A DNA stretch of 39,090 nt from Erysipelotrichaceae bacterium (GCA_031271635.1 JAISVG010000044.1:1-39090), one strand, 5' to 3'. Positions 11,667 through 39,090 are shown, counted from the stretch's first letter. Made by a program: numbers and translations. The notes: generated by a model from the sequence alone, not told the origin.

Positions 11667-11892
11667 CCATGTGCTTGTGGCAATTGATGGTATTGACCAT
11701 GAATTTGAAGTGATTTTTAGTGTTAAAGTTGCGGATAGTAATCTTGAGATTTTTTATATGACACCACTATTAGATCCTGGGACCATTTTGGCTTTTAAAG
11801 TATTAAACGATAGTTTTGTCATCCTTAATGATGAAGAAGAAACCCTCGCACAAGAAATCTATCTACAATATCAAAAGGAGTTTAATGAGTAA
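11656..11892 (+). CDS. DUF1292-family small acidic protein (YrzB-like)
   Basis: 78 aa. SD GAGGAG at 11642-11647 lies 8 nt before ATG 11656. The position after ruvX and the acidic C-terminal half fit DUF1292. The family call is from memory of the pattern. Confidence 0.6.
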   Translation: MNHNHVLVAIDGIDHEFEVIFSVKVADSNLEIFYMTPLLDPGTILAFKVLNDSFVILNDEEETLAQEIYLQYQKEFNE

Positions 11893-12958
11893 GAAACTTT
11901 TCTTCACTACTGTTTCGTTTGCTGCCACCTTGGTCCTTGTTTCGGTGGTCGCAAATATTCCCGTGGTGCGAAGTTTCCTTACGGGACCATTAACACTTGA
12001 GGTTTATAACGAGAAAAAGGAATTGGTTCATGAGACCACAGTTAGATATGGGAGTAGTTACAAGATTCCACAGGTTTACTATGATTCCCTGCCTAAGACT
12101 TATGTTGAAACAATTTATTTTAATACCTTAAAAGGGTGGGACCAAGATCTCACCATGATTAAGCGTCCCCTTAAAGTATTCCCACTTTACGAAGCTAAAG
12201 AGATGTTGGAGATTAGATATGATAAAGTTTATTTCGATATTCAAGGCTTTAAAGAAGAGTATCAGAATAATTACGAAATTACAAAGTTAGTGATTCCAGG
12301 TACCATTACCCACGAAGGCACTAACAAACGTCTGGCCACCGTAAAAACCAATGCTTTTTTAGATAATCCTTTTCTTGAACATATTGAGTTCTTACCATTT
12401 CAAAAAGAAGCCGAGTACCGCAAAGTAATTATTGAAAGCAAAGCTTTTATCAAGATGGCTCGTTTAAAAACTATTATTTTTTCCGAAAATGTAAAGGATT
12501 TAGGACATCAAGCTATTATCAATAATCTCTTGCTAGAAAAGATTGTTTTTAAGGCGACATCATTTGAAAGTATTGGACATGAAGTTTTCTCAAACCTCCC
12601 GGCATTAAAAGAAATAGTGTTACCTAGTGATATCGAAGCGATTTCTAACAATATGTTTTATAAGTGCAGTAGTCTTACTAATATTGGGTATCTAAGAAAG
12701 TTATTGCGACTTAGTTATAGTATCTTTAATCTTTGTGAGAAGATGGAGTGGTTTATCATTCCTTCTGGCGTTACTTTTGAACAACCAACAAAGGTGTTTT
12801 TAGGATCGCCATCGAGTCTAGTTTTATTTGTCGTTGAAAATGACGATGTGAGAAATCTTAGTTCTGACTGGAATAAAAATGGGATAAATAATCTTAGATG
12901 TTATTATGAAGGAGAATGGTATTTTGATGAGGCCTTACAAGCTCCGGTACCTAAATAG
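11885..12958 (+). CDS. membrane-anchored BspA-type leucine-rich-repeat surface protein
   Basis: Start at ATG 11885 (MSKKLFFTT..) with AAGGAG upstream. N-terminal TM helix, a segment resembling a Listeria-Bacteroides repeat (..LKGWDQD..VFPLYEA), then LRR_5-like repeats (aF..c..L..i.lP..i..I...aF). C-terminus is EWYFDEALQAPVPK. Confidence 0.7.
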   Translation: MSKKLFFTTVSFAATLVLVSVVANIPVVRSFLTGPLTLEVYNEKKELVHETTVRYGSSYKIPQVYYDSLPKTYVETIYFNTLKGWDQDLTMIKRPLKVFPLYEAKEMLEIRYDKVYFDIQGFKEEYQNNYEITKLVIPGTITHEGTNKRLATVKTNAFLDNPFLEHIEFLPFQKEAEYRKVIIESKAFIKMARLKTIIFSENVKDLGHQAIINNLLLEKIVFKATSFESIGHEVFSNLPALKEIVLPSDIEAISNNMFYKCSSLTNIGYLRKLLRLSYSIFNLCEKMEWFIIPSGVTFEQPTKVFLGSPSSLVLFVVENDDVRNLSSDWNKNGINNLRCYYEGEWYFDEALQAPVPK

Positions 12959-12960
12959 TA

Positions 12961-14061
12961 ATGAAACGACGTATTAGTGGCGTGTTAATTTCGATCTTTG
13001 CGGTTGTTTCCCTTTGCCTTGGGAGTTTTATGATTATGATCACAACTGGCTCCCTATATGACATTTTTAATATTAGTGTGACCGCTTCTTTTTATGATTA
13101 TGAAGCAAATCTAATCTATGAAGAAACCGGAATTCGATACGGACAAGGTGTGAATTCATTACCTGATGTCAGCGCCCTTAAACGTCCTGACTTAAACGGC
13201 TCCCGTTATGAATTTAGTCGCTGGGATAAATCACATAGTAATTTAAGAATTGATACGGCCTTTTTCCCGCTTTATGAGGCTGATTTCTTATTTGAATTTA
13301 TCCTTCGGGGACAGCGATATGATTTTTCAGGTATTGATTCTGAGTATCAAGGAACCATTAAAGAATTTGTGTTTCCTGATGTAATTCAAGTTGCAGGGGC
13401 GAAACGACATCTTCACGTTATTGATAGTGACTCCTTTAATGGTGATACAAGCATTGAATCAATTGCTTTTCAGGTCCCAGGGAATAGTTTTGACCGTGAA
13501 GAATATGTCGTTCGTTTAGGTTATAACACCTTTGCATACGCTCAAGCACTGCGAGAAATTATCTTTCCCTCAACAATGTTTTTTGAATATGCGGCCTCCA
13601 GTAACTTTGCGCATACTGAAAATCTAGAGAGAGTGGTTTTCCCGATGAATCTTGATGTCATCAGCGATTTAGCTTTTAATGATTCAGGAATTATCTCTTT
13701 GGAGAATGTCGATCATATAAAAACTATTAAGAGACAGGCTTTTGGCAATACCAAAAGGTTTAAAGGTACTTATTTTAGGAATTTGAGTTTTTTAGGAGAC
13801 AATGCGTTTTATAATGCCTCCGCTCTTGAATGGCTGATTATTCCTAAGGACTGTCGGTTTGAAAACGAGAACATGCATATTGGATATAACGCTAATCCGG
13901 AATTGCAACTCTTCATTGATGATATTCGCGGTGATGCTTATGTTGATTCACTACCAAGTGAAAACTGGAAGAAGCGTAATAGTAATGAGACTTTTGCAGT
14001 CTATTATCAAAACGAATGGTATTTTGACCAAACTCTTAATCGTCCAGTACCACTTATTTAA
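12961..14061 (+). CDS. membrane-anchored BspA-type leucine-rich-repeat surface protein (tandem paralog)
   Basis: Same architecture as 11885-12958: TM helix, YEFSRWDKS..FFPLYEA, LRR_5-like repeats and C-terminal EWYFDQTLNRPVPLI. Confidence 0.7.
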   Translation: MKRRISGVLISIFAVVSLCLGSFMIMITTGSLYDIFNISVTASFYDYEANLIYEETGIRYGQGVNSLPDVSALKRPDLNGSRYEFSRWDKSHSNLRIDTAFFPLYEADFLFEFILRGQRYDFSGIDSEYQGTIKEFVFPDVIQVAGAKRHLHVIDSDSFNGDTSIESIAFQVPGNSFDREEYVVRLGYNTFAYAQALREIIFPSTMFFEYAASSNFAHTENLERVVFPMNLDVISDLAFNDSGIISLENVDHIKTIKRQAFGNTKRFKGTYFRNLSFLGDNAFYNASALEWLIIPKDCRFENENMHIGYNANPELQLFIDDIRGDAYVDSLPSENWKKRNSNETFAVYYQNEWYFDQTLNRPVPLI

Positions 14062-26117: not shown

Positions 26118-27920
26118 TTGGTGGATAAAAAATTCATTCGTAATTTCTCTATTATTGCCCATATCGATCACGGGAAATCAACAATCGCGGATCGCATTTT
26201 AGAGTTTACACATACCGTTTCATCTCGAGAAATGAAATCACAGCTTCTTGATTCCATGGACCTTGAACGCGAACGCGGTATTACCATTAAGCTTAATGCT
26301 GTAAGAGTTTTATACACTTATCACGATGATGAATATGTCTTTAACTTAATTGATACTCCAGGACACGTGGATTTTTCTTATGAAGTCTCCCGCTCGCTTG
26401 CGGCCTGTGAAGGTGCGCTTTTAATTGTCGATGCGACCCAAGGAGTGGAAGCTCAGACCCTTTCGAATGTCTATCTTGCTATCGATAATAATCTCACCAT
26501 TATTCCAGTGATTAATAAGATTGATCTTCCTTCCGCGGATGTCAATATGGTAAAACAACAGATTAAGGATAAAATCGGACTTAATCCCGATGACTGTGTC
26601 CTCGTCTCGGCAAAGATGGGAACTAATATTGCCGCTATTTTGGAGCAGATTGTGATGAAAATCCCCGCTCCTAAAGGTCAAGATCAAGGGCCACTAAAGG
26701 CTTTAATCTTTGATTCTTATTATGATTCATATCGTGGCGTGATTCCGCTAGTCAGGATTTTTGATGGTGAAATTCGTGTTGGAGACGAGATTCTCCTTTA
26801 TTCAAATCAGAAAAAATATTTAGTAACGGAATTAGGTGTTAGAACTCCAAAAGAAGTTAAGGTCGATGTTTTAAGAAGTGGTGAAGTTGGTTTTATCAGT
26901 GCTCAGATTAAAGATATTAAGGATATTCGTGTTGGAGATACGATTACTCTTGCCGCAATGCCGACTACGGACCCTTTTCCTGGTTATAAAATTATGCAGC
27001 CAATGGTCTATTCTGGTGTTTATCCCGTTGATAATAAAAAGTATAACGATTTAAGAGACGCTCTTGCGAAATTAGCCCTTAATGATGCCAGTCTTCGCTT
27101 TGAACCAGAAACTTCTTCAGCCTTAGGATTTGGCTTTAGAATGGGCTTTTTAGGCCTCCTCCATATGGATGTGATCCAGGAGCGGCTCGAACGCGAATAC
27201 GATATTAACCTCATTTTAACTTCACCCTCGGTTATTTATGAAATTGAACTCACAACCGGTGTCTTGATTAAACTTGATAATCCATCTAAACTTCCCGATT
27301 TAACCAAAATTAAGGAGATTCGTGAACCTTTTGTGAGAGCAGAGATTGTCTTACCAAAAGAATATGTTGGGGTGATTATGGAGTTATGCCAGAAAAGACG
27401 GGGCGTATATCTTGATTTAGTATATCTTGATGATTATCGCAGTGAACTTATTTATGAATTACCACTAAGTGAAATTATTTACAATTTTTTTGATCAGTTA
27501 AAAAGTCTCTCTAAAGGTTATGCTACCTTAGATTATGAGCCGCTTTCATATCGAGCTTCCAATCTTGCAAAGATGGATATTCTTCTTAATGGTGAAGTAG
27601 TTGACGCCTTATCAACCATCGTTTATAAGCCGACGGCCTTTAATCGCGCGAATGCCATGTGTTTAAAACTTAAAAACATCATTCCTAGGCAACAATTTGA
27701 AATTCCGATTCAAGCCGCGATTAATCATAAGATTATTGCCCGCGCGGATGTAAAAGCGGTTAGAAAAGATGTCTTAGCAAAATGTTATGGTGGTGATATC
27801 ACTAGAAAAAAGAAACTTCTTGAAAAGCAAAAAGAAGGAAAAAAGCGGATGAAGGCAATTGGTAGCGTGGAAGTACCACAAGAAGCATTTATGTCAATTC
27901 TTTCTTTAGATGATGATTAA
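26118..27920 (+). CDS. lepA: elongation factor 4
   Basis: 600 aa with [28 protein letters not shown] and the LepA-specific C-terminal domain. No upstream in-frame ATG, so the start is TTG 26118 or GTG 26121. Confidence 0.95.
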
Positions 27921-27952
27921 AGCAGTAAAATCTACTATTTTTATACTAATTA

Positions 27953-27961
27953 TGCTAAAAT
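27953..27961 (+). promoter_or_regulatory. extended -10 element abutting the 27968 start codon
   Basis: TGCTAAAAT at 27953-27961 lies 6 nt before ATG 27968. No SD is present. Confidence 0.4.
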
Positions 27962-27967
27962 GACGAT

Positions 27968-29299
27968 ATGGCCAATCTTGATATTGCAGTGCGTTTTACC
28001 GATGATCTTTATGCTACTAAGGCTGAAGTAAAGCAGGAATTAAGATTGATTTCAGTTGATTCACTATGGCCAAATATCCTTGCATATCGCGCCTTTTTTA
28101 ACCGGGAACTTGAAATTTTTAATCATCGTGGAGCGAGTTTTTCGCTTAATCTAAACCCCGGTTTTTTAGGTCGACTTAGCGAACTGGATTTAAAGATTTT
28201 GAAACTAACATTATTAGGAGAGTCTCATCAAACCACGCTTTATGAACTGGTTTTAAAGGAAGTGGCCCGTTATCACCAGCAAGTAATTAGTAGTGACTTT
28301 GCCGTTAAAGTAAAAACTAATCAGGTCACGGCGATAAATCGTGAGCAAATCCCCATTATAAATTATGGCTTTGCCTTAAATGATTTATTAAGTGAAGTAA
28401 AACCACTTAGTGAAGAAACTATTAAACTTGTTGCAGCAAAGTTTCTTCTTGATGATCCTAAGACACTTCAGTACCGCCTCCACGAACTCGAAACTCAAAC
28501 TCTTAATAATCTTGAAGCAGCAACGGTACCAGCGCATTTAATTCGTGATGTTATCACTAAAACGCTTGATTTTGTTAGTCAAGAAAAACTCCCATTTTCG
28601 TTAAGAATCATGGTACTTCAGTTTATCATCTTATATACCAAACCCTTTACCTATAATAGCGAGGAGTTATCACTATTACTAATGAAGCTTGGAGCAGCCT
28701 CGCTCCTTGGAACTCCTCTTGGGGCCTTGCTTCCCTTTGAAGGGCTTCTTTTTGAACTAGAGGATTTAAAGCCGGCTTTTGAAGCGACCATGATAAATAG
28801 CGATTTAACCTATTATCTTGATGCTGTGACCAAGATACTACTAAGTGCCTGTGATCAAGCTACTAACGCCTTAGCGGCGTTTCCCACCTTAGTTTCTGAA
28901 AACCCCGCCCCTTTAATGGAGAATCAGCCAGAAGAAAGCGTTCCTACAGTAAAAGAGACAGCAGTTCCTAAAGAAGGTCAAACTGTAAGTTATTTAGTGG
29001 ATGTGGCCCTCCCGCGGATTCCCATTGGTTATAGTAAGATGGAAGCGGAAAACTTAGTTTTACATCTTCTTGAAATCGAGCCGAAAATGAAAAAGATGGA
29101 AGCAAAATTTTATGCTCATCACTGCACAAAAGGGAAATATTACACTATTTCACAATTTAAGCATTATAATAATTGTGTTTACGAAACCGCGAGGACTTCA
29201 ATGGATCACTTAGTTGAGATGGGGTATTATTCAAAACAACAGATTAAGAATAAGTTCGTTTACACCCCGATTAACAAACGGAAGGAAGGAGTAGTATGA
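27968..29299 (+). CDS. hypothetical protein; Fic-fold-like with a degenerate active-site motif and a C-terminal winged-helix-like domain (tentative)
   Basis: 443-aa ORF. My by-eye alignment places ..LQFIILYTKPFTYNSEELSLLLMKL.. on the Fic core ..IHPFxDGNGRxxRLL.. The C-terminus YYTISQFKHYNNCVYETARTSMDHLVEMGYY resembles the wHTH found at the end of many Fic proteins. Coding status is solid but the family call is tentative. Confidence 0.45.
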   Translation: MANLDIAVRFTDDLYATKAEVKQELRLISVDSLWPNILAYRAFFNRELEIFNHRGASFSLNLNPGFLGRLSELDLKILKLTLLGESHQTTLYELVLKEVARYHQQVISSDFAVKVKTNQVTAINREQIPIINYGFALNDLLSEVKPLSEETIKLVAAKFLLDDPKTLQYRLHELETQTLNNLEAATVPAHLIRDVITKTLDFVSQEKLPFSLRIMVLQFIILYTKPFTYNSEELSLLLMKLGAASLLGTPLGALLPFEGLLFELEDLKPAFEATMINSDLTYYLDAVTKILLSACDQATNALAAFPTLVSENPAPLMENQPEESVPTVKETAVPKEGQTVSYLVDVALPRIPIGYSKMEAENLVLHLLEIEPKMKKMEAKFYAHHCTKGKYYTISQFKHYNNCVYETARTSMDHLVEMGYYSKQQIKNKFVYTPINKRKEGVV

Positions 29300-29553
29300 T
29301 TGTTAAACTTGCAGCGAGCGACGCCTCAATTTGGATTGTAATTTTTTTAATTGCTTTCTTTGGAGGGATTGCCCTTCTGACCTTTATTTTGTATCGTGTC
29401 TTACGTTTAAATAAAAAAGACCGGCTTCATAAAAAATCTGAAGACGAAATTGCAAGAGAAGAATTAAATCGCGTTCTTGAACCAATTAAGGACAAAGAGA
29501 TCCAAAAACAGATGAATGAATATCAAAAAGAGAATCAGTCTAAGTCCGAATAA
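29296..29553 (+). CDS. small single-pass membrane protein with a charged C-terminal tail
   Basis: 85 aa. ATGA overlap with the preceding stop. One TM helix (IWIVIFLIAFFGGIALLTFILY) followed by a Lys/Glu-rich tail. Confidence 0.55.
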   Translation: MIVKLAASDASIWIVIFLIAFFGGIALLTFILYRVLRLNKKDRLHKKSEDEIAREELNRVLEPIKDKEIQKQMNEYQKENQSKSE

Positions 29554-30649
29554 CGCCCTTTATCTTCATTTACCTTTTTGCCGTTTAATGTGTTCTTATT
29601 GTGCTTATCCTAAAGTTTTGTTGCATGATAAATTCGTGCGTCCTTATTTAGAAGCTTTAAAACAAGAACTAGTTAGCTTAAACATTAAACCCTCGACCAT
29701 TAAAAGTATTTATCTTGGCGGCGGGACTCCCAATGCTTTAAGTGATGATGATCTTAAAACTCTTCTTATGATGCTTAAACCTTACTATCATTATGGGGTC
29801 GAATATACCATTGAAATGAATCCGGAACTAGTGACTACTTCCCAATTAGAGTTGCTACAACGTTTTCACATTAATCGTCTTTCAATAGGAGTTCAGACCT
29901 TTAATGAGAAGTATCTTCAAGAGATTAAGCGTCACCATAATTATCGCCTAGTTAAAACGGTCATCAAAACAGCGCGAGATCATCACTTTAACAACATCTC
30001 TCTTGACCTCATGTATGGCTTTAAGAACCAAAGCGAAGCCGAATTATTAGAAGATTTAGCAAAACTAATCAGTCTCAAGGTCGAACATGTTTCTTTATAT
30101 CCCTTAATGATTGAACCTGGTACCGTATTTGGAATTAATAAATACCCCGAGATGGATGAAACCACCTTCTATCGTTATTATCACTTGGTTCGTAAAACCT
30201 TAAAACAAGCTGGTTTTCATCATTATGAAGTGGTGAATTTTGCTAAAGACTCGCGCTTCTATTCAAGACATAATCTTACTTATTGGACCCTTCAACCCTA
30301 TTATGGAGTGGGTTTAGGCGCCGCTAGTTATGTAAAAGAGAAAAGAAGTAATAATACCCATAACTTAACGAAGTATCTAAAAGGTGATTTTAAGGAGTAC
30401 GAAACCTTAGAAACCAAGAAAGAGGCAATGGAGAATTATGTGATTTTTGGCCTACGATTACGAAAAGGGATTAGTATTAAAGCCTTTGAAGCGTTTTTTT
30501 CAGTTTCTTTTAATGACATTTGCGGGACAATAGCCGAAAAACTTATCGAACAAAAGCTCCTTTATCGGAGAGGGCAATATTTAAGAGTGCCAGTAAAACA
30601 GTTACTACTACTTGATTATATCGGGCGAGAATTTATTCTTGATGATTAA
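29516..30649 (+). CDS. hemW: radical SAM HemW-type heme chaperone (HemN-like)
   Basis: 377 aa with LYLHLPFCRLMCSYCAY (CxxxCxxC), YLGGGTP and a HemN_C-like tail. Conserved lepA-hemW neighbourhood. The 5' end overlaps the previous ORF by 38 nt. Confidence 0.85.
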   Translation: MNIKKRISLSPNNALYLHLPFCRLMCSYCAYPKVLLHDKFVRPYLEALKQELVSLNIKPSTIKSIYLGGGTPNALSDDDLKTLLMMLKPYYHYGVEYTIEMNPELVTTSQLELLQRFHINRLSIGVQTFNEKYLQEIKRHHNYRLVKTVIKTARDHHFNNISLDLMYGFKNQSEAELLEDLAKLISLKVEHVSLYPLMIEPGTVFGINKYPEMDETTFYRYYHLVRKTLKQAGFHHYEVVNFAKDSRFYSRHNLTYWTLQPYYGVGLGAASYVKEKRSNNTHNLTKYLKGDFKEYETLETKKEAMENYVIFGLRLRKGISIKAFEAFFSVSFNDICGTIAEKLIEQKLLYRRGQYLRVPVKQLLLLDYIGREFILDD

Positions 30650-30665
30650 ATCCCAGAAAACAAAT

Positions 30666-30693
30666 TTGCTTTTAAAATTTTGCATGCTATAAT
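30666..30693 (+). promoter_or_regulatory. promoter of the Fic/Doc-family gene
   Basis: TTGCTT at 30666-30671, 16-nt spacer, extended -10 TGCTATAAT at 30685-30693. Confidence 0.5.
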
Positions 30694-30746
30694 GTATTTG
30701 TGAAACAAATCTATTGTTTTTTTCCAAAAATGTTTCACATATATTG

Positions 30747-31673
30747 ATGATGGAAACTAAATTAGTAACGTTGGTAAATGAAAGAGTCAAGTTGCGGCAA
30801 AGACTTGAAAGCCTTTTGTATGGAACGGTGGAGATCAGAATTAAGGATGATAAAAAATATCTTTATGTTCATTACCGTGAAAACGGTCTTGCTTATACTA
30901 AATATGCTGGGGTGTATAACGAAGAACTTTATCGTTTGATTCTAAAAAACAACATTGAGGCGAGAAACCTTAAAAAAGCGCTGAGAGAGATTAATAAAAC
31001 TTTAAAAACCTTTAATTATGTCGCAAAAGAATTGAGCGAAAAAATTAAAGTAAATATCGATTTTGTGAGAAAACATCTAGTAGAAACCGTCTATAAGCAA
31101 GTGGTTTTAGAGGATATTGCCGCAACATATCTTGACACTGAAACAATTATTGATGGCGGTAAAGTAAATGGTCTTGTAGCTACAGACGTTTTGAAAATCC
31201 TTAACTTAAAACACGCTTGGGACTTTGTTCTAAATGAAAATATCATTACTTTAGTGACTAGTTTTGAAATTCTTTGTGATATTAATCGACTTGTTACCGA
31301 AGGTTTCTATTATAATGCTGGAACAATACGCAGCGTTCCAGTATCAATCGGGGGAACTTCGTGGCAACCACCAGTACCAATAAAACAAGTGGTAATCGAG
31401 GAACTAAATCAAATTCTTAGTTCTAAAATATTGTTAGAGGATAAAGCAATTGCGTTACTTTTATATGTTATGAAGCGACAGATTTTTCTTGATGGTAATA
31501 AAAGGACGGCTGTCATTTTTGCGAATCACTTATTAATTTCAAAGGGTTTCGGAATTATTGCTATTTCTGAGTCCTTAGTGCCGCAATATAAAGTGCTTCT
31601 AATTTCCTATTATGAGGGCAAGGATGAAACTATTAAAACCTTTTTGAAACAGCATTGCCTTGTAAGAATTTAA
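30747..31673 (+). CDS. Fic/Doc-family protein with a variant motif (QIFLDGNKRT)
   Basis: 308 aa from ATG 30747 (MMETKL..; the TTG start at 30714 is unlikely). Has GTIRSVPVSIGG and a Doc-like core FLDGNKRTAVIFANHLL, with Gln (CAG, 31479-31481) where the catalytic His is expected. Confidence 0.7.
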   Translation: MMETKLVTLVNERVKLRQRLESLLYGTVEIRIKDDKKYLYVHYRENGLAYTKYAGVYNEELYRLILKNNIEARNLKKALREINKTLKTFNYVAKELSEKIKVNIDFVRKHLVETVYKQVVLEDIAATYLDTETIIDGGKVNGLVATDVLKILNLKHAWDFVLNENIITLVTSFEILCDINRLVTEGFYYNAGTIRSVPVSIGGTSWQPPVPIKQVVIEELNQILSSKILLEDKAIALLLYVMKRQIFLDGNKRTAVIFANHLLISKGFGIIAISESLVPQYKVLLISYYEGKDETIKTFLKQHCLVRI

Positions 31674-37123: not shown

Positions 37124-37800
37124 TTGCTCCCCTTTAAAATAAATGAATTAAGTATTACTTTAAAGTATATCATAGCTTTTTTATTTTGAAGAAGAAATAA
37201 CACTGTATTCACGCTGCTGCGTGGCACGAAAAGGATGTTTATGTATTTTAATGAAGGCGAAGGCGCTTGTTGCTGGTGCGGTAGCATTAAAGAGTGCATA
37301 GCGAATAAGCGTAATTAAATGCGAAATAATGGTACTTTGATAAATCGTCTCTGGCGAGTGCTACTGCCTATTATTACGGGGAAAAGTATTATATTATCTC
37401 ATCTTTGACACTTCGTCCTCAAATATTCCCACCATATCGATCAATACTGGATTTAAAAATGTGGCAATAATTATTTCTTGTTTTTATTTAAAATAGTATT
37501 AGTAAAGTCGTTTCGATCAAGACTCTTAGACCTTCGCCTAGTCCATACTCGGCTAATTGATATAATCCGAACATAAACTTTGAAACAACGATGTTCGTCG
37601 CCTGGGCAAAGACAAAGTTTTATGTTGCAATTCTAGAATATTCCGTCTTTCATTTGTCTATCGATTAGTTTTCTTTAGTTACTGAGACCGTTTAGTCTTT
37701 TTATTCTTTTGCTGTTTCAAAAATTCAAGAGAATGCGAAAAAGGAATAGAGTATTAGTGCCGAAGATGAAATGTATAAATGTTATTTTAGTTTTGTAGTT

Positions 37801-37824
37801 TAAGAAATCTGTCACTTATATTGT
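37801..37824 (+). repeat. left copy of a 24-bp inverted repeat
   Basis: TAAGAAATCTGTCACTTATATTGT matches the reverse complement of 38752-38775 at 22 of 24 positions. Confidence 0.85.
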
Positions 37825-37870
37825 AGCCATTCCATACTCTATAGAAAACGGTATACGATCAGATAAGGAG

Positions 37871-38152
37871 TTGACAGTCGGAGGTCTCTTCTTGTCTGGA
37901 CTTCAAGCGGCTGCAACATTTGGAATTGCATTCATGGGCGGTAGAGCAGGACTATTTGGAAAGAATTTAGCAGGCGTCAGTCCGATACGCTTTCTAATTA
38001 ATGCAGTTAAACACACAGGAAGAATTACAACAATCCAAAAGATTGTTTATGCAACACAACTTTGGTCCTCTAGTTTTATAGCAAGAGTCCTATTTATGAC
38101 ACTACCAGCAGCAGGCATTCGAGCTTTAATTGAAAAACTAATTAATGAGTGA
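37871..38152 (+). CDS. small hypothetical protein with a Gly/Ala-rich hydrophobic N-terminus (glycine-zipper-like)
   Basis: 93-codon ORF that opens just after an in-frame TAG. The start is TTG directly abutting AAGGAG, which is poor spacing; the next Met is at codon 22. Its stop overlaps the next ORF by 4 nt. Coding status is uncertain. Confidence 0.35.
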   Translation: MTVGGLFLSGLQAAATFGIAFMGGRAGLFGKNLAGVSPIRFLINAVKHTGRITTIQKIVYATQLWSSSFIARVLFMTLPAAGIRALIEKLINE

Positions 38153-38658
38153 TAAAATTGTTGATGATGAGAATAGAAAGAAGTAAATATATTCAGAAAT
38201 GTCTTATTTTGTCGGCAGGATTGTTAGTGCTTCCGTTTCTACTTTTATACTTTCTGACATTATATAAATTCGGGTTCGACTGGACTGCATTCGGGATTTT
38301 TATCGGACCAGTTGCTGGAATAATGTTTGTTCTTCCTATACTCTATTTCATATTGATTAAATGCAATAAATGTTACTACTTAATAACCTCTGACTCCATA
38401 AAAATGTTTAAAAAAGATCAGGAACTATTTACAATCCTTAATACTAATATTGGTGCGATGAGATACATTAGATTTAGCCAGGCATTTTTAATGCAGTTTG
38501 GGGCTGGATATTTAAATATAGAGTATAAAGATGCAGAAGGACAAATTAGACCAACCTTTATTCTTCCAAATGGTATTAAGATCTACTCAATTTCGATGTC
38601 ACCCAAACAAGCAAAGCAAGTAGCAAAAATCATCAATAGAGATTTCTTGTCTAGTTAA
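38149..38658 (+). CDS. membrane protein with two TM helices and a bacterial PH (bPH_2/YdbS-like) domain; candidate immunity protein
   Basis: 169-codon ORF; the real start may be ATG 38164 or 38167. Two hydrophobic helices are followed by YYLITSDSIKMF..I..MRYIRFSQAFLMQFGAGYLNIEY, which is typical of bPH domains. Confidence 0.55.
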   Translation: MIKLLMMRIERSKYIQKCLILSAGLLVLPFLLLYFLTLYKFGFDWTAFGIFIGPVAGIMFVLPILYFILIKCNKCYYLITSDSIKMFKKDQELFTILNTNIGAMRYIRFSQAFLMQFGAGYLNIEYKDAEGQIRPTFILPNGIKIYSISMSPKQAKQVAKIINRDFLSS

Positions 38659-38751
38659 AAAAGCAAGCAACCATATAGTTAGTGTTTCGCATCAGAACCA
38701 TTTTAATTGTACTAGATCAGATTTTTTGAATTTAATATAACGGAAACGTCC

Positions 38752-38775
38752 ATAATATAAGTAACAGATTTCTTA
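38752..38775 (-). repeat. right copy of the 24-bp inverted repeat
   Basis: The reverse complement reads TAAGAAATCTGTTACTTATATTAT. It ends 1 nt before the RHS reading frame opens. Confidence 0.85.
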
Positions 38776-38776
38776 G

Positions 38777-39090
38777 TATAATAATAGTGAATACTTCTAC
38801 CAAAGAAATATTCAAGGTGACGTAGTAGCTATCTATGACACCACTGGTTCTTTGAAAGCTAAATATACTTATGATGCCTATGGTAATCACACTATTACTA
38901 ACTATGATGTCAGTCAATTAGGAGATCTTAATCCTTTTAGATACAGGGGTTATTATTATGATGTTGAAACTAGTCTTTATTATCTTCAAAGTAGATACTA
39001 TGATCCTAAGATCGGAAGATTTATTAGTAAAGATCATCTTAATTATCTTGATCCTAAAACCATTGGTGGTCTTAACCTCTATGCATATTG
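38777..39090 (+). CDS. RHS/YD-repeat core C-terminal fragment, start-less (orphan module), continuing beyond the window
   Basis: The frame opens right after TAG 38774-38776 and is open to the window end. The translation ..YFYQRNIQGDVVAIYD..YTYDAYGN..NPFRYRGYYYDVETSLYYLQSRYYDPKIGRFISKD..NLYAYC is the canonical end of the RHS core. There is no in-frame ATG or GTG in 104 codons, only a TTG at 38852. Confidence 0.75.

Follow-up and report, generated by a model that had tools for sequence, protein, structure and literature searches.

In the 39,090-base contig JAISVG010000044.1 of an Erysipelotrichaceae bacterium (the whole contig is called the window below), a pair of 24-nt inverted repeats brackets a predicted toxin remnant and an immunity-type gene, directly in front of an RHS core fragment. 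Very probably, an RHS orphan toxin-immunity array has its left edge here, with a defunct toxin stub, an immunity gene that is still live, and then the core fragment of the next module. The two repeat arms are tentatively read, with a probability of about 0.4, as terminal repeats that a small non-autonomous cassette left behind when it was mobilised or inserted in one past event. Nothing points to present-day activity of the repeat.

The left arm (37801-37824) reads TAAGAAATCTGTCACTTATATTGT, and the reverse complement of the right arm (38752-38775) reads TAAGAAATCTGTTACTTATATTAT. The arms are identical at 22 of 24 positions, with mismatches at positions 13 and 23, and enclose 927 bp; the arm sequences, coordinates, and identity given in an earlier note on this DNA were found to be exact on re-reading. 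The similarity ended at both outer edges, as that note had also described. Inward, a repeat finder stretched the arms to 31 nt at 84%, but only four of the seven added nucleotides matched, and a gapped local alignment of both arm neighbourhoods halted at 22 nt. The arm similarity is therefore a sharply bounded 24-mer. The 12 outermost nucleotides of the arms were identical, and both mismatches were confined to the inner half, one of them falling at the centre of the 24-mer. On inspection, the internal dyad symmetry of the 24-mer was weak (6/10 symmetric pairs). The longest exact run common to both arms was 12 nt, which makes an assembly artefact via shared k-mers unlikely. The flanks, TTTGTAGTT on the left and GTATAATAA on the right, showed no match between them.

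The position of the arms carried more weight than their sequence. Gene breakpoints were mapped by tblastn with 147 probe proteins and by six-frame translation. The left arm ended at 37824 and the toxin homology began 5 nt further on, at 37829, with no alignment beginning earlier. The right arm ended at 38775 and the RHS homology began 2 nt further on, at 38777. Each arm coincides with one of two independent gene breakpoints. No remnant of the missing toxin and RHS halves was found to the left of the repeat or elsewhere on the contig.

These arms were the sole inverted 24-mer pair with ≤2 mismatches on the contig, and a third copy of the 24-mer was not found there with up to 3 mismatches. In shuffled sequence, a second copy of this specific 24-mer was not seen (0/100 shuffles). 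Among 150 Markov-matched random contigs, any inverted 24-mer pair with ≤2 mismatches was present in seven (about 5%), and a pair of the same kind within 2 kb was present in one (about 0.7%). The earlier estimate of far fewer than 0.1 chance matches holds with the distance restricted to 2 kb and fails for pairs at any distance. Chance similarity in AT-rich DNA, picked out by the screening of many windows, would fit the seven random contigs that hold such a pair, and the same 21-mer does occur coincidentally in unrelated genes worldwide. However, a pair this close was seen only once in the random set, and chance does not place the arms 2-5 nt from two independently defined breakpoints. It is because of this coincidence with the breakpoints, and not because of the repeat statistics, that a chance origin is considered very unlikely.

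Between the arms, the earlier note had described exactly two overlapping open reading frames (ORFs). These ORFs were mechanical calls, and their overlap did not stand. When the open frame 37799-38149 was used for an exhaustive search without profiles, 15 proteins were retrieved, with homology from about query residue 11. The homology in the window starts at 'IPYSIENGIRSDK', upstream of the TTG that defines the mechanical ORF1, and ORF1 is for this reason a truncated piece. Apart from the window's own 72-aa call, the ORF1-like sequence was C-terminal in the matched proteins, and in the homologues about 100-150 aa of Gly-rich glycine-zipper/transmembrane (TM) sequence preceded it. In P0129, P0130, P0132, and P0136, the RHS core end '...GLNLYAYCGNNPVM..DP.GH' preceded the glycine-zipper/TM part. 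A C-terminal toxin domain of the kind found in orphan modules is recognisable here, as the domain follows '...NPVM..DP.GH' in these four proteins and in P0138. ORF1 retained merely the C-terminal ~105 aa of the toxin domain, with neither the RHS core end nor the glycine-zipper/TM N-terminal part. Judged by its homologues, ORF1 is a predicted 5'-truncated stub of an RHS C-terminal membrane-toxin domain and not an intact gene. ORF1 matched no Pfam or NCBIfam family, and a word-indexed homology search with the toxin stub retrieved only the stub itself.

The N-terminal part of P0129 matched solved Rhs cores at their C-terminal end (7q97, 8h8a, Tse5, Tse15). Residues 29-231 of the same protein (L021:622-2016) matched mosquito salivary gland surface (SGS) protein 1, residues 2675-2864 (8fjp_A), with E = 3.8e-16. 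This match covered the RHS-core end together with the glycine-zipper/TM part and was better than that of any bacterial Rhs structure. It hints that the N-terminal half of the toxin may be a membrane-insertion module that it has in common with SGS proteins.

ORF2 had four full-length homologues at 50-54% identity, and their starts aligned with ATG 38164 as the start of ORF2; therefore, there is no real overlap with ORF1. No Pfam, NCBIfam, or PDB match was obtained for ORF2. In the related locus L022, an ORF2-like gene lies directly 3' of an ORF1-like toxin gene, and in L021 it is fused to one. Since toxin and ORF2 adjoin in three independent loci (the window, L021, and L022), they are predicted to form a cognate toxin/immunity pair. 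In all three loci the immunity gene comes right after the toxin or is fused to it, as in an orphan module, and its protective role is predicted. Homologues and the TIGR03696 profile thus bore out the toxin/immunity context beside an RHS fragment that had been proposed earlier.

Lone ORF2 homologues were found in unrelated contexts, namely after ksgA (L003) and beside spoVA genes (L004, L005). In L003 and L005, the DNA homology upstream reached back over just the final ~25-40 nt of the toxin gene, a stretch that holds the TTGAAA box. The ATTGAAAAA (-35-like) box and the ATG were conserved upstream of the lone homologues (L003:9985-10036; L005:509-546; window 38110-38163). The site at 38130-38158 was the best promoter-like site of the region. 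ORF2 is probably expressed on its own from this internal promoter, and the conserved box suggests that the promoter may travel with the gene once the toxin is lost. Truncated toxins and lone immunity genes in orphan modules were common among relatives. In the protein collection, ORF2 was absent under every start tested and ORF1 was present. The clusters of window proteins that were looked up held proteins of the same contig only (five single-member clusters and two with a second start-variant call), and no close relative of the window proteins was found in the collection searched.

To the right of the right arm, 38777-39090 scored 57 bits with TIGR03696 (RHS repeat-associated core; cut-off 32.5) and so passed it, aligning with positions 1-62 of the 76 in the profile. 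It had 122 homologues, the closest of which were ≤64% identical. No ATG was present in its 104 codons, and its frame opens directly behind a stop. Because 24 of 125 RHS alignments begin exactly at 38777, the first codon, this fragment is truncated at its 5' end too; a start-less C-terminal core fragment is what an orphan module carries. The stops that close the RHS frame are TAA 38762-64 inside the arm and TAG 38774-76 straddling the arm edge. The right arm had been said to end 1 nt before the RHS frame, and this was correct, as the frame opens at 38777 behind the TAG. The contig ends within the RHS core and the rest of module 2 lies outside it; an end at this point suggests that the assembly broke where the locus is repeated or varies between strains. 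The data set SRR14710911 holds the same organism; its Logan contig of 4,328 bp was 100% identical to 26730-31057, a stretch that does not include the junction. The features of the region are collected in Table 1.

Table 1. Coordinates of the repeat arms, predicted genes, and other features at the right end of the window.
Feature	Position	Strand	Description
Non-coding stretch from amylase gene start to left arm	37124..37800		677 nt; without RHS, toxin, or immunity remnant
Left arm	37801..37824	+	Toxin remnant's 5' breakpoint lies next to the inner edge
Predicted RHS C-terminal toxin-domain remnant, 5'-truncated (ORF1)	37826..38152	+	Frame open from 37799; mechanical ORF 37871-38152
Promoter-like site TTGAAA-17-TAAAAT with upstream TG	38130..38158	+	In the 3' end of the toxin remnant; 10/12 match
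Predicted intact cognate immunity-type gene (ORF2), 164 aa	38164..38658	+	Two predicted TM helices and a conserved C-terminal domain
Spacer from immunity stop to right arm, 93 nt	38659..38751		Without predicted terminator; without homology to relatives
Right arm	38752..38775	-	RHS core fragment's 5' breakpoint lies next to the outer edge
5'-truncated RHS core fragment, start of next orphan module	38777..39090	+	Without ATG; runs off the contig end

The favoured reading joins these observations as follows. A cassette of ~975 bp (37801-38775) with inverted-repeat ends would have been moved in trans by an enzyme encoded elsewhere, and this mobilisation would have brought the toxin stub and immunity gene to their place ahead of the RHS fragment. 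Whatever lay to the left of the cassette would afterwards have been lost by an adjacent deletion; this deletion would account for the missing upstream RHS half. The immunity gene would be read from its own promoter inside the toxin stub, and its product may guard the cell against this type of toxin delivered by neighbours, with the toxin stub and the start-less RHS fragment remaining silent. With 12 matching nucleotides at the outside and both mismatches further in, the arms have a polarity like that of terminal inverted repeats (TIRs) with the cassette inside, and repeats best kept at their outer tips are a property of miniature inverted-repeat transposable elements (MITEs). A gene cut at the edge of the cargo is as expected for captured DNA. 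Among the geometries that the earlier note had listed, a small non-autonomous cassette gave the best fit.

Several results weigh against this reading. The repeat by itself is merely moderately improbable, the more so if many windows were screened. No clear target-site duplication was found; the TA at the outer ends could count as one only because it is palindromic and part of the repeat, and is hence uninformative. No recombinase, transposase, or integrase was present among the 28 large ORFs of the contig, in agreement with what the earlier note had reported. No true second copy was found in the genome, metagenome, viral, and plasmid collections; of the source genome, the search covered this contig, which holds the two arms only. 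A bracketing inverted repeat was absent from L021, L022, L018, L019, and the lone immunity loci. The reading also requires extra events, namely the capture of a truncated gene and then an adjacent deletion, as the upstream RHS half is absent from the left flank. The cassette that had been proposed thus keeps its geometric fit, with its perfect outer 12 nt, and lacks a target-site duplication beyond the palindromic TA, a second copy in the DNA searched, and a transposase on the contig.

The motif scans behind the negative copy result used the 24-mer, also written TAAGAAATCTGTYACTTATATTRT, and its 21-mer form AAGAAATCTGTNACTTATATT. Two single matches in unrelated metagenome-assembled genomes were obtained from the genome-representative scan. 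The metagenome and viral scans gave twelve single matches, nearly all in an SNF2-helicase motif and with unrelated flanks, and the scan of the plasmid collection gave noise only. The AAGAAATCTGTNACTTATATT matches (L001, L002, L006-L017) were nearly all the KKSVTYI codons of SNF2-helicase motif VI (DRAHRIGQ-KKSVTYI-DLIAE). These matches were rejected as true 24-mer copies, as they are a coding coincidence in SNF2 helicases with unrelated flanks. Exact-motif scans can fill entirely with one conserved protein motif. Multiple copies, as expected of a MITE-like element, were not seen: two arms lie on the contig and none in the collections searched. Judged by the collections searched, the 24-mer is neither a widespread operator nor a known element end. 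The check for the 24-mer elsewhere, which had been proposed earlier, gave no true copy in these collections.

The same absence of further copies fits another explanation, in which the repeat is the scar of a one-off rearrangement and no mobile element was involved. About 24 nt would have been copied in inverted orientation as junction filler, by illegitimate recombination or template switching while the junctions of the orphan array formed; two substitutions would have followed, and the repeat would have no function. Both arms lie exactly at breakpoints, the 24-mer is unique in the collections searched, and neither a clear target-site duplication nor an enzyme is present on the contig, all of which favours a scar. 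The contig also carries comEA and comEC, so uptake and illegitimate integration of foreign modules would be plausible. However, bacteria rarely show templated inverted insertions of 24 nt. A scar also leaves unexplained why the same filler marks two junctions 927 bp apart and why, in the manner of TIRs, the arms are identical in their outer half. We regard this explanation as unlikely.

The geometry of the repeat is also that of an inverton, in which a recombinase encoded elsewhere would flip 37825-38751, so that the immunity cassette would undergo phase variation. An imperfect 24-nt repeat in inverted orientation around about 0.9 kb lies within the range of known invertible elements, and the contig breaks 315 nt further on, where a recombinase could sit just beyond the end. 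The pair itself (22/24, 927 nt apart) is of the kind required, but a cognate recombinase was not found among the 28 large ORFs in 39 kb. When 37825-38751 was flipped in silico, the junctions became ...TATATTGT/GGACGTTTCC... and ...GGAATGGCT/ATAATATAAG... (in an alternative spelling, ...CACTTATATTGT/GGACGTTTCCG... and ...GGAATGGCT/ATAATATAAGTAAC...). The open frame of the toxin stub merely gained 17 start-less codons of antisense RHS, and the RHS frame stayed closed because the arm itself carries the two stops given above. The flip thus yielded no gene fusion and changed no gene in silico. The promoter-like site of the immunity gene lies inside the segment, and flipping should not switch the gene. 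In addition, the dyad symmetry is weak, the central mismatch falls where crossover sites normally need identity, and relatives carry no comparable repeat. An active inverton is therefore quite unlikely, and the invertible segment that had been suggested earlier is left with its geometry alone.

Two related ideas on the reading of the junctions were rejected. Read in frame with the toxin stub, the 24-mer encodes KKSVTYI, and it does likewise on the minus strand at the right arm. As a translated shufflon-like junction it fails, since translation would meet a stop one codon ahead of the left arm, stops in the right arm close the RHS frame, and the minus strand upstream of the right arm is antisense RHS. 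An ancestral inversion restoring a gene was also rejected, because the minus strand of the cassette encodes nothing RHS-like.

The place of the arms at the 5' boundaries of two successive modules can also be read as a site of cassette exchange, with the 24-mer delimiting toxin/immunity modules in alternating orientation along the array, much like Xer-dependent dif modules or integron-like rAID-1 arrays. A precedent is given by the recombinase-linked orphan-immunity arrays of rAID-1, which have repetitive intergenic sequences (bioRxiv 10.1101/471110). In the window, however, only two copies are visible and no recombinase lies on the contig, the motif is absent from all collections searched, and no 11-6-11 arm/spacer architecture was seen on inspection. 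The related arrays use direct RHS-core repeats: orphan arrays were bounded by direct core-DNA repeats of 213 nt at 83% in L022 and of about 120 nt at about 87% in L021; in the window, a single core fragment is visible ahead of the contig end. A site of exchange is thus very unlikely. A conserved junction for the swapping of modules, as had been proposed earlier, agrees with the arms at the module boundaries and disagrees with a motif that is not conserved and with the direct repeats of relatives. A dif/Xer-type site was rejected, as the 24-mer lacks the 11-6-11 architecture and is unlike Bacillus dif. In L018:12600-12760 (and L019:3916-4061), three copies of the palindromic TTTGTTTCACGTGAAACA were observed in a 3.6-kb stretch without called genes. 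An orphan RHS module borders this stretch on one side and parB/parA/trmE/gidA on the other, which places it close to where that relative probably has its replication origin.

The arms could also be a regulatory element in place, either as an operator pair for a single DNA-binding protein or as a 24-bp long-range mRNA helix that forms on a read-through transcript around the cassette and serves as an RNase III site or stabilising clamp. The minimum free energy and centroid folds of 37785-38790 both paired the arms, and the spacer from the immunity gene to the right arm is free of terminators. The pairing, however, follows trivially from the arms being complementary. Around the arms, scans for Rfam families, terminators, and promoters did not rise above chance, so that neither an Rfam family nor an above-chance promoter upstream of the left arm supports a regulatory role; relatives show no conservation, and the coincidence with the breakpoints would stay unexplained. 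We consider this explanation, like that of chance, very unlikely.

That the 24-mer is a functional recombination or transposition site, which makes the toxin stub and immunity gene a discrete mobile or invertible unit, appears unlikely. If it were, Bacillota would possess a mechanism for moving or re-orienting orphan immunity cassettes in RHS arrays through inverted sites at module boundaries. Its logic would be akin to that of rAID-1/integron or dif modules, and one would expect to meet more copies at other module junctions past the contig end.

To the left of the cassette, no main rhs gene was found on the 39-kb contig; its place is taken by the non-coding 677 nt and the opposite-strand amylase gene. 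Over 37124-37800, no Rfam match and no tblastn match with the 147 probe proteins was obtained. A small frame, MFMYFNEGEGACCWCGSIKECIANKRN, is present at 37235-37318 (+); it encodes 27 aa with 4 Cys, has no homology to support it, and may be a random frame. All 28 large ORFs on the contig were housekeeping or otherwise ordinary genes (thrS, pfk, ackA, alaS, ruvX, greA, comEA, comEC, holA, lepA, hemN, and others), among them also genes for a Fic protein, a MacB-like ABC transporter, and an amylase. Apart from housekeeping genes, two adjacent BspA-type leucine-rich-repeat proteins at 11816-14061 (+) and the Fic-domain protein at 30714-31673 stood out; these BspA-type and Fic proteins fit a host-associated Bacillota organism. 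A tRNA-Met gene lies at 119-193, near the contig start.

Orphan immunity genes let bacteria survive toxins delivered by neighbours, and their acquisition and shuffling are well understood just for the homologous recombination of Proteobacteria and the recombinase-linked arrays of Bacteroidales. If the repeat were active, it would be a new mobilisation route for immunity cassettes in Gram-positive gut-type bacteria. As a single instance, the repeat bracket stays a curiosity. The solid gain is an unannotated RHS toxin/immunity pair, predicted from three independent loci and with no Pfam or NCBIfam family, together with evidence that lone immunity genes of the ORF2 family spread without the toxin.

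By comparison with known systems, several kinds of element share part of this organisation. In the literature that was searched, a report of an inverted-repeat bracket on an orphan module was not found. MITEs are usually <600 bp, non-coding, and multi-copy, with target-site duplications. Like MITE-like elements, the cassette ends in short inverted repeats, encloses no transposase, and is associated with a toxin system; unlike MITEs, the unit is 975 bp long, carries a gene, is single-copy as far as visible, and has no clear duplication. Among MITE-like elements, Correia repeat-enclosed elements flank type VI secretion system clusters in Neisseria (PMC10210955). In invertons such as Hin, Gin, fimS, and the Bacteroides and Clostridioides switches, short imperfect inverted repeats flank invertible segments (bioRxiv 10.1101/2023.03.11.532203). 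The window resembles them in its inverted-repeat pair around a few hundred to about a thousand bp, and differs in having no invertase nearby and no orientation-dependent promoter or coding logic.

The rAID-1 arrays of Bacteroidales have a 5' XerD-family recombinase, many co-directional genes, and repetitive intergenic motifs (Ross et al., bioRxiv 10.1101/471110). The window shares with them orphan immunity genes, some with toxin remnants, and short repeats that suggest cassette acquisition. In contrast with rAID-1, its genome is of Bacillota type, no XerD-family recombinase stands at an array head on the contig, and the repeat between genes is visible as one pair of two inverted copies before the contig end.

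Close counterparts are the Rhs orphan modules, in which rhs-CT/rhsI fragments stand displaced on the downstream side of a main rhs gene (Koskiniemi et al. 2014, PMC3967940). In the classical model, homologous recombination with the main rhs gene activates the orphans (PMC3967940). The locus in the window shows the same start-less last part of the core, variable C-terminal toxin, and small immunity gene after it, in an array of truncated modules. It differs in that an amylase gene, and not a main rhs gene of full length, lies upstream on the contig, and in that module 1 has no core fragment and lacks half of its toxin. It also has a 24-nt inverted repeat, unlike known Rhs arrays and the loci L021 and L022, which have direct core repeats for homologous recombination. 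Orphan modules of RHS type, immunity genes without their toxin, and short inverted repeats each belong to a kind already known, and the toxin/immunity pair of this locus is an undescribed member of its family.

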